Numbered from the stretch's first letter, positions 1 through 6,885 are shown. The stretch is 6,975 bases of DNA from Candidatus Vampirococcus lugosii (GCF_018420025.1 NZ_JAEDAM010000054.1:1-6975), one strand, 5' to 3'. The notes: generated by a model from the sequence alone, not told the origin. Program-made: numbers and translations.

Positions 1-111
1 AACATAAAAGACAATTATCCAAAGTATGTAATAAGTATGGATGATAGTTTTGGTGAAAGTTATGACTGAATAGAAAATATAAATATAATTGATTGGTTAA
101 TTAAGTTTTAA
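1..111 (+). CDS. 3' end of a P-loop ATPase of the AAA_14/DUF4143 (COG1373-like) type; the 5' part lies outside the window
   Basis: Frame +1 is open from nt 1 to TAA 109-111. With TGA=Gly it translates as NIKDNYPKYVISMDDSFGESYDGIENINIIDWLIKF. From memory this resembles the conserved C-terminal tail of DUF4143 ATPases (..NxPKxVxxxD....GIxxxNIxDxLL). Only 36 aa are visible, so the family call is tentative. Confidence 0.5.
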
Positions 112-131
112 TTTATAAATATTATTAAAAA

Positions 132-1703
132 ATGGCAGAGAAAGAAATATTATATTCTATAAATTGAGAGAAAATATATCCATTGAACACTAATTTAAAA
201 GAATGAAATAAATCTAAAAAATGATTTAATAGATGAGTAATTGTAAAAATTATTGATATGCTTGTAGCAAATAAAGTTAAAGAACAAAAAATTCAAAATT
301 TTCTTTATGATTTTTCTTCAGATGCAGAAACCAAGGAAGAAAAAAGAACTTATAAAGAAAAATTTTCTTTTAATTTGCCTAATAGTGGTAGTTTTAAGAG
401 TGTACTAAAAAAAATTGAAAAACATGATATTTATAATTTAGCTTGAATTTACGAACTTATTTTAGATTGAGAAAAAATTATTGATGAAGAAAAGCCAAAA
501 CAAGAAAAACAAATAAAACAAATTATAGATGAAATAAAAGAAAAACAAACTATACAAACAGAGCAGTTATACAATATATTGATGTCTTTGACTGTAAATA
601 ACTTTTTGATATTTTCATGACCTTCATGAACTTGAAAAACATCAATAGTAGATACACTTTCTGATAGTTTAGGTGGTAAATTTCATAAACTTCCTGTTAG
701 AGCAAACTTTAGTGATGAAAGTGCTATATTGGGGTACTGGAATCCACTACTTTCAAGATATGAATGAACTGAAACTTTAAGATTTTTGATTGAAGTTTAC
801 AAAAGTGAAAGAGAAATAAATTTTTTACTTCTTGATGAGATGAATCTTTCAAAAATTGAAAACTATTTTTCTACCTTTTTGTCTGAGATAGATAGACTGA
901 AAGAAAAATGAGAGACTACAATAACACTTTTTGAAACAAATATTACAAATAAAAAACAATATGAAAATATAAAATACTTTTTAGAAAATTATTTTAGTGA
1001 AGATTTTGAAAATAATATTTATTTTAGTTGAAACTTTTTAGAATATTGAAAAAAAGAAACAGATGAAAATTGAAACTTTGAAACAGAAGAAATACAATCT
1101 ATAAAAGTTTTTATAAAATTAAAAAATAATCTAAAAATCATCTGAACTATAAACGAAGATGAGACAACAAATAGCTTATCAAATAAAGTACTTGATAGAA
1201 GTCAGTTCGTAACATTTGAAGTATGAAACTTGTTTGGTGAGGATGAAAATGAAAATGAAGAATTAAATTTAAAGTATAAAAATTATTTTGATTCATTTTA
1301 TGAAGAAAAGATAAAATTAAATCAAATTGAAAATTATTTTAAAAAATTAGATAAATATAAAGAAATAAAAACAATTATAACAGCAATAAACGAGCAAATA
1401 AAAAACATAAGCATAAATGAAAGTGTATGATATAGAGCAATAGAAGAAATCATGACTTATATAAAAAATTATTGTAATTATAATTGAGAAGATAATATTG
1501 AAAATCTTACTAAAAAACTTACTGAAAGTTTGGATAACCAGATAAGTCAAAAAGTCCTTACAAAACTTAAAACTTTTAGTTTGATAGGAGAAGAGCAAAA
1601 AAAGGCTTTTAAAGAGATAGGGAATATATTAGAGAAATTTGAAAATAAAAAATTAGAAAAATCTATAAAGTTTTATAATCATTTAAAAAGTAATATGTTA
1701 TAG
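132..1703 (+). CDS. McrB-like AAA+ NTPase (AAA_5/COG1401-type motor subunit of a restriction-like system), 523 aa with TGA=Gly
   Basis: ATG 132 directly follows an in-frame TAA at 126-128, and the frame runs to TAG 1701-1703 with 18 in-frame TGA codons. Three motifs support the call: Walker A LIFSGPSGTGKTS (606-644), Walker B region FLLLDEMNLSKIENYFSTFLS (822-884), and GTINEDETTNSLSNKVLDRSQFVTFE (1143-1220). Together they match the DEMNL...YF and GT.N.DET...S.KVLDR signature I recognise in McrB-family AAA+ proteins. Track ORFs 258..446 and 1230..1430 are fragments of this frame. Confidence 0.85.
618..644 (+). other. Walker A / P-loop (GPSGTGKTS); all three glycines are encoded by TGA
   Basis: The codons are tga cct tca tga act tga aaa aca tca. 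Only TGA=Gly restores the GxxGxGK[ST] consensus. Confidence 0.9.
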
Positions 1704-1704
1704 G

Positions 1705-2499
1705 ATGAAAAAGTATTTTGAAGAAATAGAAATTTTGGAATGAGTCTATTGAAACATTTATTTCAAAAACAATTTACATAAATTTAAAACCTTAATTCAA
1801 AGGGATTGGAGTAAGTATTTTGATATAAAGTTTTTTGATTGAAAAAAAGAATTATTTTAAGATAACAATTGAGAAGAAGAGAAAGATAACAAAAATAATA
1901 AAGATAATAAAGATGAAAAAACTAAAGAAAAGGGAATATTTTTAGAAAAACTTCTTTTAAAATTAAATAATAAATTTAAATCTATACATGAATATTTTGA
2001 AATAGATGAAAAAACTAAAAATAAACCTTTAAATGAAAGAATTTATATTTTTAATGAAAGTAAAAAAGAAGAACTAAAAATATTTATAAGAAATTTTTAC
2101 AATAATTACTTACAGGAACATTATATAAAAAACAAATTTGATATAGATTTTATTAAAGAAAACAATTTTACTTTACAAAAACATTTCAATGTAAAAGAAT
2201 TCTTTTCAGACCATGAAAGTTTATTTGATAAAAATAATGATTTTGAAAAAGCAAAAAATAAAAGAATATATCTTTGAGTAAAAGATGAAAATAAAAAAGA
2301 ATTAAATACTTTAGAAGATCAGATAAATAATTTAAATGAAGAAAATAAATTTTATATAAAAGTAAATTTAAAAGATTTGGAAAATACAAAGATATGATGA
2401 GAAAAAATTGAATTAAATTGAACAACAAAATATGAAAATATATTTATATTAGAAAGATGAGATTATATTTATCATACTAAAAATAAAAATAATGGATAA
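1705..2499 (+). pseudogene. Unknown protein (264 sense codons) interrupted by a single in-frame TAA at 1858-1860; possibly a pseudogene, a sequencing error, or a 51-aa peptide plus a start-less downstream ORF
   Basis: ATG 1705 lies one nt after the upstream TAG (context TAGGATG). Frame +1 stays open to TAA 2497-2499 apart from the TAA at codon 52. The 212 codons after that TAA contain no TAA/TAG, and no in-frame ATG/GTG/TTG occurs before TTG 2377. The 3' end overlaps the next start (ATGGATAA at 2492-2499). The sequence just after the stop is a D/N/K/E-rich low-complexity stretch. I recognised no family motif. Confidence 0.55.
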
Positions 2500-4744
2500 A
2501 CAAATTTTGGAAAATTTAAAAGAATTTTTACCTCAAGATGTAGTAAATGAAATATTAATTTCTAATGGTTTTGAGCTTGAGTGAGAGCATAAAGGAACAG
2601 AAACAAGAACAGAAACAAAAACAGGAACAGGAACAGGAACAGGAACAGGAACAGGAACAGGAACAGGAACAGGAACAGGAACAGGAACAGGAACAAAAAC
2701 AGGAACAAAAACAGGAACAGAAACAGGAACAGAAACAGGAACAGAAACAAAAACAGAAACAAAAACAGGAACAGGAACAGGAACAAAAACAGGAACAAAA
2801 ACAGGAACAAAAACAGAAACAAAAACAGAAACAAAAACAGGAACAGGAACAGAAGCAGAAACAACAGAATGAAGTAAAAATAATAAACAAACAATTTTTG
2901 AATTTATAAATGAAAAACAGTTAGATAATTTTAAAAAACTAAATGTAGAAACTTGAACAAAAAATATCAGATATTGATTTGAAACTCTTAATACAGCTCC
3001 TTTTGAAAATAATAATTTGGAATATTTTATATTTCCAGTGTCTATAAGTAGTATACAAAAATTATTAGAACTATTAGCAGAGATAAGAGATTTGTTTAAG
3101 TGAAATGATTCCAGAAATTATATTCCAAATTTTTTAATGGAAGGAGAATGAGATTGAGCAGATATATTTATAGATAGAAAGATAAATTATCTTACATATT
3201 TGATAATAAATTTTTTAAATAACAATTGAAAACAACTTTTGCCTCATTATATAAACTATAATAATTTCAAACTTGATAAAATAAATCCTTCTTTATTAAA
3301 AAACGAAAATTTCTATAAAAATTTTATGGTGAAAGAAACTTCATATATACAAGATATGCAAGAAACTATAAACAACCCAAAAACTCAATTTTTGAAATAT
3401 TATCTTTTACATTTTATAAAAAATATTGAACCAGAATATGCAAATAAGATAAAATTTTTACTTCAAACATACTTAAAAGATGTAAAGTCACAAAAAACAA
3501 ATGTAAATATATCCCAATATAAAGACCTAAAAACAATTTTTGCACTTATGGAATCTATAATAGAATGAGATATTGCTACCAAAAGACAACTTTTAGATAA
3601 GATAAATGATCTATATGAGATATGGTTATTTCAAAAGATGGTTTATTATTTTAATCAGAACAAAGAAGAAAACAAAGATAAGAAAGAAAAGATAGAAGAA
3701 AAAATAAAGAAAAGATTAGAAGAAAAAATGTATTATACTATACATATTGATGAATTGAATAGATATTTATGAGAAAAAAATAAAGTTAACTTTAAAGACT
3801 GAATAGTAAGCAAAGAAAAAAAAATATATTTAAATGAAAAAATTATTTATTTAAAAAAAGAAGATGATTTTAAACAATTTGAAGTTGATAAATCATTAGA
3901 TGGTATTTTAGATCAAATAGAAGATATTAATACTAAAAATAACATTAAAAATAACATTATTAAACTTAATTTTAATGCAACTGAAATAAAAAGAAAACTA
4001 AATGATGAAATTTTAAAAGATTATAATAAAAAAGAATGAAAAATTGATTGAATAATTAACAAAATAAATAAAAATGAAAAGATTAAAAAAATTAAAGAAT
4101 TAGAAGAAAATCTTACCATCTGAAAATGATTTATAAAAGAAGATGATCCTGATTTTGATTTACTTGCAACAATAGATTTAGATAAACTTTCAAATCAATT
4201 TCAATGATATAATTTTAGTATATCACTTTGAGGACATAATAAAAATCTACAAAATAAAAATAAATGTATACTTGACCCAGTTTTATGTGATTTGATCTCA
4301 TCAAAAATAGAAGAACTTCAAGATATTTTAAAAAGTGATAAGATAACACCTGATTTTATTATTAAAATTAAAGGCTGAAAAAATATAATTTGATCAATAT
4401 TTTTGGATGCAAAATTTTCAAAATATCCTTTTTTCTTAAAAAATCAAAATAAAAAAGAAAATATGGATTATGCTCCAGTTTTTAAATATTATAAAGAACT
4501 TGCCAAAAATTTTTCTACTTCTGATATCGATAATAATTTCCCATACAAAGTTATTATACTTTTCCCTTGAGATAAGGAAGCTCAAGAATTAAAAGAATTA
4601 AACAATTATTTTCAAAGATATACAAATATAGTAGCTGTTCCTATGATGGTTTGAAATGAAAATATTTTAAATAAAAATTTAGATTATTTAGAAAAGTATA
4701 TAAAAGAATTTACAAGAGAAGTTATAAGAAAAAGAAAAGGTTAG
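2492..4744 (+). CDS. McrC/DUF524-like PD-(D/E)xK nuclease-domain protein, 750 aa, with an N-terminal (G/E/K)-T dipeptide repeat and a K/E/N-rich central region
   Basis: ATG 2492 overlaps the upstream stop by 8 nt. I checked frame +2 codon by codon, and it is open to TAG 4742-4744 with TGA read as sense. The C-terminal region reads ...KITPDFIIKIKGGKNIIGSIFLDAKFSKY..., with PD at 4349-4354 and D-A-K at 4406-4414. That is a classic PD...(D/E)xK core as in McrC (PD......DxKYK). An upstream helix, LYEIWLFQKM (3611-3640), resembles the lYE.W motif that precedes the core in DUF524-type nucleases. The gene sits downstream of a McrB-like gene. Track ORF 3239..3568 is an internal fragment whose 'M' is really a TTG Leu. 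Confidence 0.8.
2594..2863 (+). repeat. Tandem hexanucleotide repeat, 45 units of [GG/GA/AA]AACA, lying in frame inside the CDS
   Basis: My unit count is GGAACA x24, AAAACA x10, GAAACA x9, AGAACA x1 and GAAGCA x1. These include 12 consecutive perfect GGAACA units at 2624-2695. In the gene's frame they encode GT x24, KT x10, ET x9, RT x1 and EA x1, a total of 90 aa. Confidence 0.97.
4349..4414 (+). other. Putative PD-(D/E)xK nuclease catalytic core (PD ... DAK)
   Basis: The codons are cct gat (P-D) at 4349-4354 and gat gca aaa (D-A-K) at 4406-4414, separated by 17 residues (FIIKIKGGKNIIGSIFL). A hydrophobic beta-strand-like stretch precedes each acidic residue. Confidence 0.65.
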
Positions 4745-4745
4745 G

Positions 4746-6485
4746 TTACTTTGAAGTTCATAATATATCAGTAACAAATTTTGAAGAATCTTTTAAAAAT
4801 TCATTTCAATTATAAGTAACAATTTTTTCGGTCTTTTCTCAATATATAAATTCATTTATATTTTTACCTCATATTTTAAGATCAAAAGATACATAATTAT
4901 TTGTCATAAGAAAAGATATAGCATACAAAGATATTGTCAATGTTCCTAAAAATCTAAATCAGTTATGCCATCTAATATATTTAGATTCACTATAAAAATT
5001 TTTTCTTAAGAATTTATTTCATATATATAGTAAAATAATTCCAAAAGAAAGTATAAAAGAGAAAAAATATCATATAATAACCAAACTAATAACAAATACA
5101 GAATTATTGAATATATTTATTTTTTTTAATTTTTCTTGTTTATTGTCTTCAAATGCTTCATATTCTTCAAAGAAGGTATAAACTTTTATATATTCATAAT
5201 AATTTTCACATAATCCAAAGTATAACAATAATTTTATATAATCTATCTTATCTTTTTTTACACTTAAGTTATCATATAAAAATCTTAAAATATGAGTTTT
5301 TATAATATCAGCAAATATACTTTCTTGAAGTTTAATAATTAAAGATTTATAATTTTCTAAAGTATTTAAAAACTCTATAGATTGTTCTTTACTTTTAGAT
5401 ATATCTGAGATATCTTCAATATTTGATTTATAGTCAATTTTTACTTCAAGCCAATCTTGTTTTTTGCTATATTTGTTTTGTGTAAAATGCTTTACCCAGT
5501 TAGAAAACCTTATATCAAAGTTTTTTTCTTTTATACTATTTTTAAAATATCACCATAGATATCATTTTATTTGTCATTCTTTTTTTTCTGCAATATCTGA
5601 AACCTTTATATAATTTTCAAAATTAAATTCATAATTATATATAATATTTTCAATTTCTTTTCTTTCTTCTAATTTTTCTATTTGAGATTTTTTATATTCA
5701 TTTGTTTCATTGAAAGATAAAAGATTTATAATATCATTCATTTTTGAATAACTTATATCTTTGTTTATATATTTATCTATATCAAATAACTCAAAAATTT
5801 TAGCCAAAAACTCATATTTTTTACTGTAATTATTTTCATTTTTGAAATAAAAAGAAATAAGGTTGTTACAGAAAGATGATTCATTTGAATATCAAGATAA
5901 ATTTTTTAATTTTGTTCATTTTTTAAAACTTTCATCAATTAATATATCTCATTTTAAATTTGAAGTATTAAAATTTTTTGATTTTATTACTTGAATAATT
6001 AATTTTAGAAATTTCTGATAATTATCATTTTGAGTTAAATCATAAAAATCACCTTTTATCTCGCTTCTTTCATTTAAATAAGAAATAACTTTTTGTATGA
6101 AATGTTTAAAATCTTTATCAAATTTTGAGTAAATTTCTATGTGTTTTTCAGGATCAAAATATTTTGATTTCTTAGCATAATCAACGATTATTTCTTTGTA
6201 AATATTACTTATTCATATATCATATAAAAAAGAGTGTTTATTGTCATCAATATCAAAGTTATTAAAGCTTTTATTTAAAAAGATTGATATTTCTTTTAGG
6301 TAATTATTGATTTTTCAAAATATTTTTTTTACTCATATTAGAAAAGTGATTGGATTTTTTTTATTTATCAGTTCATCCAAATCACTTTTCAAGTATGTAA
6401 ATTTATTCAAATAATGTTCAATATTTTCAATTTCTTTTTTATTGTTTTCTTTTTCTATTTGTTTTTCAATATTTTTTTCACTCAT
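4746..6485 (-). CDS. Hypothetical protein, 579 aa: a large soluble N-terminal region (~460 aa) followed by C-terminal transmembrane segments
   Basis: The minus-strand ATG is at 6485-6483 and the TAA stop at 4748-4746. I verified the frame line by line, and it holds with 18 TGA codons read as Gly. Track ORF 5574..5807 is an internal fragment. The hydrophobic stretches are SVFVISLVIIGYFFSFILSFGIILLYIG and GFRFLGTLTISLYAISFLMT. I recognised no family signature. Confidence 0.8.
4902..5102 (-). other. Two predicted membrane-spanning hydrophobic segments of the minus-strand protein (5019-5102 and 4902-4961)
   Basis: There are 28- and 20-residue uncharged hydrophobic runs separated by a basic loop (NKFLRKNFYSESKYIRWHN). 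They were judged by eye only, and I ran no TM predictor. Confidence 0.6.
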
Positions 6486-6753: not shown

Positions 6754-6885
6754 GTGTTATTTACACAAAAAGATATAATAGATAAAATTTTTATTTGTGA
6801 TCAATGGTCTGTTGCGAGTTTGGCAAATAAATATAATATAAGTAGACCGACAATGTATAAAGTGCAGAAGATTAATAATTTTTAA
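6754..6885 (+). CDS. Small helix-turn-helix-like ORF (43 aa from GTG 6754); possibly a remnant of a recombinase or transposase HTH
   Basis: The frame is open from 6745 to TAA 6883-6885 and translates as (V/M)LFTQKDIIDKIFICDQWSVASLANKYNISRPTMYKVQKINNF. The S.A.LA.KY.ISR.T.YK pattern is typical of resolvase or transposase-type HTH motifs. The stretch is locally more GC-rich than its flanks. It has no ATG start and is very short. Confidence 0.35.
   Translation: MLFTQKDIIDKIFICDQWSVASLANKYNISRPTMYKVQKINNF

Follow-up and report, generated by a model that had tools for sequence, protein, structure and literature searches.

The window analysed here is the full 6,975-bp contig of Candidatus Vampirococcus lugosii (GCF_018420025.1, NZ_JAEDAM010000054.1), which carries a McrBC-like cassette of three genes on the plus strand: gene A, encoding a predicted McrB-like AAA+ NTPase; gene B, an interrupted middle gene; and gene C, encoding a predicted McrC-type nuclease subunit. 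A fourth gene, gene D, converges on C from the minus strand. Open reading frames (ORFs) were called with translation table 25 (TGA = Gly). Calling with table 11 gave fragments only, while reading TGA as a sense codon gave four long ORFs. The features of the three cassette genes were as follows (lengths in amino acids, aa):

132-1703, plus strand: gene A, predicted McrB-like AAA+ NTPase of the NxD clade, 523 aa, 100% identical to MBS8122203.1; assigned from PADLOC, Pfam, fold and gene partners.
618-641, plus strand: Walker A motif GPSGTGKT (aa 163-170), with three TGA-encoded glycines.
825-848, plus strand: Walker B region LLLDEMNL (LLLDEMN = aa 232-238), with D235 and E236 invariant.
1143-1169, plus strand: McrB signature motif in its NxD(E) form, GTI-N341-E-D343-E344-TT.
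1185-1199, plus strand: KVLDR motif of A.
1705-1857, plus strand: N-terminal fragment of gene B, 51 codons, matching the N-termini of intact orthologues.
1858-1860, plus strand: in-frame TAA, codon 52 of B, in a variable low-complexity linker.
1861-2499, plus strand: remainder of gene B, 212 codons and a stop, the conserved C-terminal body (FFSDHESLF ... ERGDYIY).
2492-4744, plus strand: gene C, predicted highly divergent McrC-type subunit, 750 aa.
2492-2569, plus strand: conserved N-terminal peptide of C (~26 aa), MDKxILxxLKEFLPxDVxxEI, found in four of five family members.
2593-2863, plus strand: hexanucleotide tandem array (period 6, ~45 copies) encoding a (G/E/K)T dipeptide linker.
3608-3637, plus strand: DLYEIWLFQK helix with invariant E376, equivalent to LYEYW at the PDDEXK_7 start of canonical partners.
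3638-4327, plus strand: K/I/N/E-rich insertion of ~230 aa between the E376 helix and the PD strand, a distance of ~70-80 aa in canonical partners.
4328-4720, plus strand: predicted nuclease core, TPD621FII ... LD639AK641FSKY ... KYYKEL ... ILFPGD ... NIVAVP.
4346-4363, plus strand: TPDFII of C.
4403-4426, plus strand: LDAKFSKY of C.

A sequence-only reading of this DNA had reported ORFs A and C with their coordinates, junctions and motifs, and all of these were present as described in table-25 translation. The stop codon of A (TAG, 1701-1703) is separated by one base from the ATG of B (1705), and B and C share an 8-nt overlap (ATGGATAA at 2492-2499). Code 25 was confirmed from gene A itself. 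Of six alignment columns that are 93-100% Gly in 30 normal-code homologues, five carry TGA in A, among them all three glycines of Walker A; no Trp column does. The V. lugosii genome paper also assigns UGA to glycine in this organism.

In an alignment of 33 homologues, K169, D235, E236, N238, N341, D343 and R356 of A were invariant and E344 was at least 90% conserved. The conserved arginines of the McrB-like AAA+ family were also present. McrB-like GTPases are divided by an Nx(xx)D signature, and the major uncharacterised branch has the NxD form, "usually followed by E or D" (Bell et al., eLife 2024, PMC11090510). The GTINEDETT motif of A has this form, and an NxD(E) motif was also found in 74 of 80 genome loci. 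INEDETT had been taken as a departure from the canonical form; it is instead the published signature of a major McrB branch and is near-universal in the family. The PADLOC model PDC-M26A matched A at 3.6e-37 and the generic AAA model of Pfam matched at 29.8 bits (cutoff 21.2). The AlphaFold model of A had a predicted template modelling (TM) score of 0.72 and a predicted local distance difference test score (pLDDT) of ~90 over aa 130-350, and Foldseek paired it with the McrB structures 6hz4 and 6ut6 (E 4e-6 to 2.5e-5, target TM ~0.49). Fold places A in the dynein/MoxR/NorQ/McrB fold group and not in the family; the signature motif and the gene partner decide the family. By these, A is assigned to the published NxD clade of McrB-like AAA+ NTPases.

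The N-terminal ~125-155 aa of A had no recognisable domain, and aa 1-138 had no Pfam match. The closest full-length orthologue of A, 56% identical in the ATPase, belongs to a second recoded locus (L002); it matched PDC-M26A at 1.2e-43 and MrcB_N at 26.4 bits (cutoff 25). MrcB_N, a modified-cytosine reader, lies there in an extra 140-residue segment that is absent from A, and it was also found in Bacillaceae relatives of A. The reader module varies across the McrB family and is hence not strictly defining. The featureless N-terminus of A, which had been listed as another departure, is thus in keeping with McrB homologues, in which N-terminal modules that vary or cannot be recognised are typical.

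With one genome scanned per GTDB species, A-type ATPases were present in at least 594 genomes. In 72 of the 80 best loci the ATPase gene had a coupled downstream gene of 550-1,300 aa with a tight or overlapping junction. Sampled canonical partners matched DUF2357 (down to 1e-79) and PDDEXK_7 (down to 1e-55), and distant A homologues in Emticicia, Desulfococcus and a JGI metagenome were followed by DUF2357 and/or PDDEXK_7 proteins. The nuclease of the window had been called unusually large by comparison with E. coli McrC, which is the wrong yardstick: partners of this ATPase clade routinely reach 550-1,300 aa, and insertions in McrC are common (PMC11090510).

The C family comprised five proteins, in which E376, D621, D639 and K641 were invariant, with A, T or S at the x of (D/E)xK. 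The invariant blocks were: D-x-Y-E376, T-P-D621-F-I, L-D639-x-K641-F-S-K-Y, Y-x-x-E-L, and I-L-x-P-G. Using a 48-sequence alignment of verified canonical partners as the partner profile, hhalign aligned the last ~130 columns of C with the partner nuclease core motif for motif (91.8%, E 7.5e-7), and the five C motif blocks were colinear with PDDEXK_7. A second colinear but weak match paired C columns 46-260 with partner columns 134-393 (E 0.005, probability 7%) and stopped exactly where LYEIWLFQK of C meets LYEyWcflk, the start of Pfam PDDEXK_7. In the reciprocal search, a hidden Markov model (HMM) of the partner nuclease region was run against 176 six-frame table-25 ORFs of the five recoded loci. 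The five C proteins came out on top (E 7.3e-7, 4e-6, 1e-5, 1e-4 and 0.03), and the other 171 ORFs all had E > 2. In a single-sequence hhalign comparison of C with the Emticicia partner only a 30-residue PD..DAK stretch aligned (E 0.016). A permissive-mact hhalign run gave a long alignment of unreliable register and was dropped in favour of the default run. Searches of the C profile against PDB sequences and of C against PHROGs found no match. Judged by its motifs and profile matches, C is assigned as a McrC-type PD-(D/E)xK subunit of the PDDEXK_7 kind, and its N-terminal half is probably, though not demonstrably, like DUF2357, the helical domain by which such subunits contact McrB. The pairing of a McrB-like motor with a PD-(D/E)xK McrC/DUF524-like nuclease, as proposed from the sequence alone, was borne out by the PADLOC, partner, hhalign, HMM and fold evidence.

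The same evidence bears on the idea that A is a MoxR-type chaperone ATPase and C a non-nuclease in which PD...DAK is a chance match. Matches of A to PDB sequences were weak and split between a MoxR-like protein (2r44, the best, E 0.004) and McrB; Pfam also returned a weak bpMoxR match, and C had no direct family match. Yet A has the NxD(E) McrB signature, the partners of its homologues are DUF2357/PDDEXK_7 proteins and not VWA proteins, the reciprocal HMM cleanly separated the five C proteins from the 171 other ORFs, and the motif blocks of C keep the PDDEXK_7 order. The MoxR explanation is close to refuted.

The repeat linker that had been noted in C was confirmed as the period-6 array at 2593-2863. 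Its units are AGGAAC, AGAAAC and AAAAAC, all in frame. A separate Logan assembly of run SRR13241709 was 100% identical to the window across 93-2637, and its short-read contig breaks inside the array, at window position 2637. Because of this break the copy number of the array is unreliable; it may also vary in the population. At the linker position, C of L002 has an acidic NNEKNLE repeat and C of a further recoded locus, L001, has Sigma70_r2. The conserved N-terminal peptide, carried on this hypervariable linker, may be a tethered docking element. The Sigma70_r2 match (PF04542, E 8.8e-7, above threshold) covers aa 85-186 of the L001 protein (P0001, 734-3097), which also had a weak region 1.2 match and a PADLOC MzaA match (1e-7). 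A sigma-factor core-binding or -10-recognition module within a McrC-type protein is odd.

Relatives of C were rare. In 5.8 billion clustered proteins there were two full-length relatives. An exhaustive C profile search of 1.84 billion representatives returned eight matches, all of them orthologues or fragments from TGA-recoded contigs (one an additional full-length protein), and no bridge to DUF2357 or PDDEXK_7. The first homology search with full-length C gave 32 matches, 30 of them low-complexity owing to the GT repeat, and a word-index search with the five-member C profile found P0001 only. Nothing further came from scanning GTDB genomes, viral contigs and JGI metagenomes for the C family. 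Altogether, five loci are known for the variant, all in TGA-recoded genomes: the window, L001, L002, L006/L007 and L009. L002 has the order A (716 aa), B (274 aa), C (723 aa) and a convergent D (598 aa). L001 has B, C and D on a contig cut short of A. L006/L007 (recoded, 47-50% GC, A only ~37% identical) has two tandem A paralogues, B, C and a convergent protein with two transmembrane segments. The order A-B-C, or B-C where the contig is cut, thus recurred in L001, L002 and L006/L007, in agreement with the co-occurrence of the three genes that the sequence-only reading had looked to related genomes for. The junction design of the window recurred in L001, L002 and L006/L007. The first A paralogue of L006/L007 (L006 418-5308, L007 4943-9833) has an N-terminal N6_Mtase (PF02384, 3e-8), the second has a HARE-HTH-like module (24.9 bits, cutoff 25.9), and the locus adjoins the type I restriction-modification (R-M) genes HsdR and HsdM.

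Gene B had been read as an intact gene of 264 codons, and a stop was overlooked: the frame is closed by a TAA at codon 52, and the 212 codons beyond it contain no ATG or GTG and just one far-downstream TTG. Both halves of B match intact orthologues, which makes B a real gene whose copy here has been disrupted. The middle gene therefore stands as a departure from the two-gene form in being real and conserved in relatives, while the copy in the window is broken. Orthologues are ~240-275 aa long with conserved blocks LIQRDW, FFSDHESLF and ERGDYIY. A B-family scan of viral contigs found no members. The notion that B is a split-off piece of A or of a canonical partner was rejected (hhalign E >= 0.17 against the partner, A and C families). 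B is the defining peculiarity of the variant and probably a conserved, translationally coupled accessory subunit. Its role is a guess: an adaptor, or a factor that confers specificity in trans, would fit with A proteins whose fused reader modules differ from locus to locus and are missing in V. lugosii.

The state of B also raises the question of decay. With B cut by a stop and A without an MrcB_N reader, activity of the module in V. lugosii is doubtful unless B is dispensable, and the module looks partly decayed. A stronger form of this view, in which the cassette no longer functions and is the decaying remains of a mobile defence island, is possible but rather unlikely. It draws on the presence of the same TAA (1858-1860) in the separate SRR13241709 assembly, on the absence from A of the reader domain of its L002 orthologue, on the insertion sequence (IS) elements flanking the orthologous L002 block, and on the public annotation. 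There, A and D carry successive NCBI numbers (MBS8122203 and MBS8122204), and no record turned up for B or C in exact look-ups, which implies that these two have no protein records. Set against these points, the ORFs of A (523 aa), C (750 aa) and D (579 aa) are long and uninterrupted and have lost none of the catalytic residues, and the stop sits in the variable linker of B. Moreover, the genome paper states that the assembly derived from whole-genome-amplified cells, and an amplification error common to the reads is possible.

Downstream of the cassette lies a gene that the sequence-only reading did not mention:

4746-6485, minus strand: gene D, convergent 579-aa membrane protein, MBS8122204.1, with hydrophobic segments at aa 458-489 and 510-528.

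In the window the stop codons of C and D are 1 nt apart (4742-4748). The two genes overlap by 4 nt in L001 (3094-3097), and C and the convergent gene of L006 overlap likewise (8566-8569); in L002 the distance is 22 nt. Since the 3' ends abut or overlap, there is no terminator room between the convergent genes. D was 51% identical to its L002 counterpart (598 aa) and 29% to that of L001. Pfam, NCBIfam, PADLOC and PHROGs returned no domain for D. The convergent two-transmembrane gene of L006 was considered as a D homologue, a relation that the search did not support (E 0.27), and it is analogous only. L009 has a different downstream gene and no D. D is a candidate associate of the system.

These arrangements would also suit a new three- or four-component system, in which B, and perhaps D, are obligate subunits with new roles, for example B as a stand-alone subunit for target recognition and D as a membrane-anchored effector or sensor, and which would not work in the manner of two-component McrBC. 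Stated more broadly, B (possibly with D) would be obligate in a system confined to UGA-recoded CPR-type (candidate phyla radiation) bacteria, recognition or coupling in trans would replace the McrB-fused reader, and the C peptide and linker (GT repeat, acidic repeat or sigma-70 region 2) would be a swappable docking or sensing element. Such a system seems unlikely, in its narrow and in its broad form alike. B is conserved and translationally coupled wherever the region is visible, the 80 canonical loci contained no B-like wedge and no convergent multi-transmembrane D-like gene, in four loci the 3' end of D touches or overlaps that of C, and the A-D block of L002 lies between inverted IS30-type copies. 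However, the window has intact A, C and D but a broken B, D is absent from L009 and its L006 counterpart is not demonstrably homologous, and neither B nor D has an assigned domain or fold. The loci are also only five, several of them from related AT-rich genomes, and shared ancestry may partly explain the synteny. The inverted copies of L002 (1-258 and 7397-7654) are 97.6% identical over 164 bp and contain an IS30-type (HTH_38) transposase start; the arrangement could be composite-transposon-like, or the contig could simply end in IS copies.

A use in nutrition instead of defence, with the enzyme helping to degrade imported prey DNA, is improbable. The authors of the genome paper propose that host DNA imported by the predator may be broken down by R-M and CRISPR nucleases. 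Nothing specific to the cassette supports such a role, the cassette adjoins type I R-M genes and IS elements in other recoded genomes, which is the usual context of defence islands, and B is broken in V. lugosii. The systems listed in the genome paper are CRISPR, AbiE and type I-III R-M systems; the present cassette is not among them.

Overall, the cassette is probably a McrBC-type restriction module of the NxD branch that has diverged strongly and is specific to its lineage. By analogy with McrBC of E. coli and Thermococcus, A would assemble into an NTP-hydrolysing ring that translocates on nucleic acid; C would dock on the ring, stimulate hydrolysis and cut nucleic acid when translocating complexes stall. 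B might supply an adaptor or specificity function in trans, which is a guess. The target may be modified or unmodified DNA; the NxD clade has also been predicted to include RNA-targeting members (PMC11090510).

Several observations weigh against this assignment. The Pfam AAA_5 score of A, 21.5 bits, falls just below the cutoff of 22; according to the McrBC census, many bona fide McrB homologues match only alias models of this sort (PMC11090510). In the fold search with A, dynein, MoxR and NorQ scored like McrB, so that fold alone is not discriminating. Direct Pfam, NCBIfam and PADLOC scans of C gave no match, and the DUF2357 part of C was not significantly recovered (hhalign E 0.005 at 7%; HMM E 0.15 at best). 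The AlphaFold2 model of the closest C orthologue, made with TGA as W and an 8-sequence alignment, was unusable (mean pLDDT 41): only the C-terminal secondary-structure order was compatible with the PD-(D/E)xK fold (alpha-beta-beta-beta-alpha-beta), and Foldseek with that model returned nothing at E < 1. B is interrupted by its in-frame TAA in V. lugosii, and neither its profile nor its sequence found relatives or a fold in domain libraries (Pfam, NCBIfam, PADLOC), PHROGs or PDB sequences. Finally, no enzyme of the NxD clade has been biochemically characterised (PMC11090510).

Two further features lie at the contig ends, of which the first is listed here:

1-111, plus strand: tail of an upstream gene, 36 codons (ends YVISMDDSFGESYDGIENINIIDWLIKF*), which stops 20 nt 5' of A.

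The tail had no Pfam match; it may resemble the C-terminus of DUF4143-type AAA ATPases. With so short a gap, the upstream gene and A may share a transcript; the upstream gene lies outside the conserved cassette. Near the right end, a 43-codon ORF (6754-6885, plus strand) gave weak matches to HTH_psq, HTH_7 and HTH_28 (E 0.02-0.04), so that it may encode a regulator or be where a transposase or resolvase gene begins. Among the distant relatives, the Emticicia locus L003 (1162-3237, 5656-6297) lies in a dense defence island with a Piwi-domain (prokaryotic Argonaute-like) gene, a separate McrBC-family gene and an ArdA anti-restriction gene. Two C5 methyltransferases flank its A-partner pair, and flanking methyltransferases were also found at the JGI locus.

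McrBC-type enzymes are among the most common restriction systems, and the family is already known as highly modular. The motor and nuclease of the present cassette are ordinary in logic; what is new is the inserted B, the extreme divergence of C and the restriction to recoded genomes. Calling it an undescribed variant in a code-25 lineage was fair, and calling it atypical overstated the case. C indicates that a McrC-type subunit can drift past detection by Pfam, NCBIfam and PADLOC and yet keep its catalytic core. Because C lies beyond the standard libraries, defence inventories of CPR and other recoded bacteria will miss such systems. The L002 copy, being intact, lends itself well to the question whether a McrBC motor can work with an adaptor that is a separate subunit. 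The V. lugosii copy looks damaged and should not be counted as active defence without further evidence.

Among known systems, the PADLOC candidate system PDC-M26 had its component A matched by gene A and by its L002 orthologue at the values given above. No PADLOC model matched B, C, D or the canonical DUF2357/PDDEXK_7 partners, and a literature search for PDC-M26 found nothing published under that name. CoCoNuT systems, a subset of the NxD clade, have a long coiled-coil fused to the McrB GTPase, tandem nucleases and associated helicase or other Cnu genes. Membership in CoCoNuT was rejected on anatomy: A has ~125-155 aa before the ATPase and no long coiled-coil, and the contig has no helicase or second nuclease gene.

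The PcaI/LlaJI-type R-M systems (PMC8989522), which combine a methyltransferase with a McrBC-like restriction enzyme of two subunits, share with the cassette an AAA+ GTPase and a nuclease subunit, of DUF2357 type in those systems and probably so in C. PcaI, a validated restriction enzyme of this composition, cuts unmethylated DNA (PMC8989522). The likeness extends to the distant A homologues that lie between or beside methyltransferase genes (Emticicia L003 and JGI 3300059473) and to the L006 paralogue fused to N6_Mtase. The cassette differs in its extra B gene, and no ORF of the window contains a methyltransferase domain; a cognate methyltransferase in trans is possible, as the genome paper counts eight methylases elsewhere in the genome and the contig covers only 6,975 bp.

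E. coli K-12 McrBC, a Type IV system (6hz4, 6ut6), has the same AAA+ fold group, the same layout of Walker A, Walker B and signature motifs, and a PD-(D/E)xK subunit in the operon. The E. coli signature is NxxD (NTAD), whereas that of A is NxD, and A has no MrcB_N/ADAM reader. C belongs to the PDDEXK_7 type, not to Pfam McrBC, and has about twice the length of its E. coli counterpart, and the cassette has an extra middle gene.

The NxD-clade McrBC systems (PMC11090510) are the closest described kind and have in common with the cassette: NxD followed by E in the GTPase, a PDDEXK_7-type partner in the operon, a large partner with insertions, variable N-terminal modules of the GTPase, and a defence-island or mobile context in relatives. 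The cassette differs from them in having a conserved B translationally coupled between the two subunits; a C that library models do not detect, with a marginally alignable DUF2357 part and a ~230-aa insertion in the nuclease domain; an N-terminal peptide that is conserved in the C family and sits on a hypervariable linker; a membrane protein gene that converges on C and abuts it; and a distribution confined to TGA-recoded genomes.

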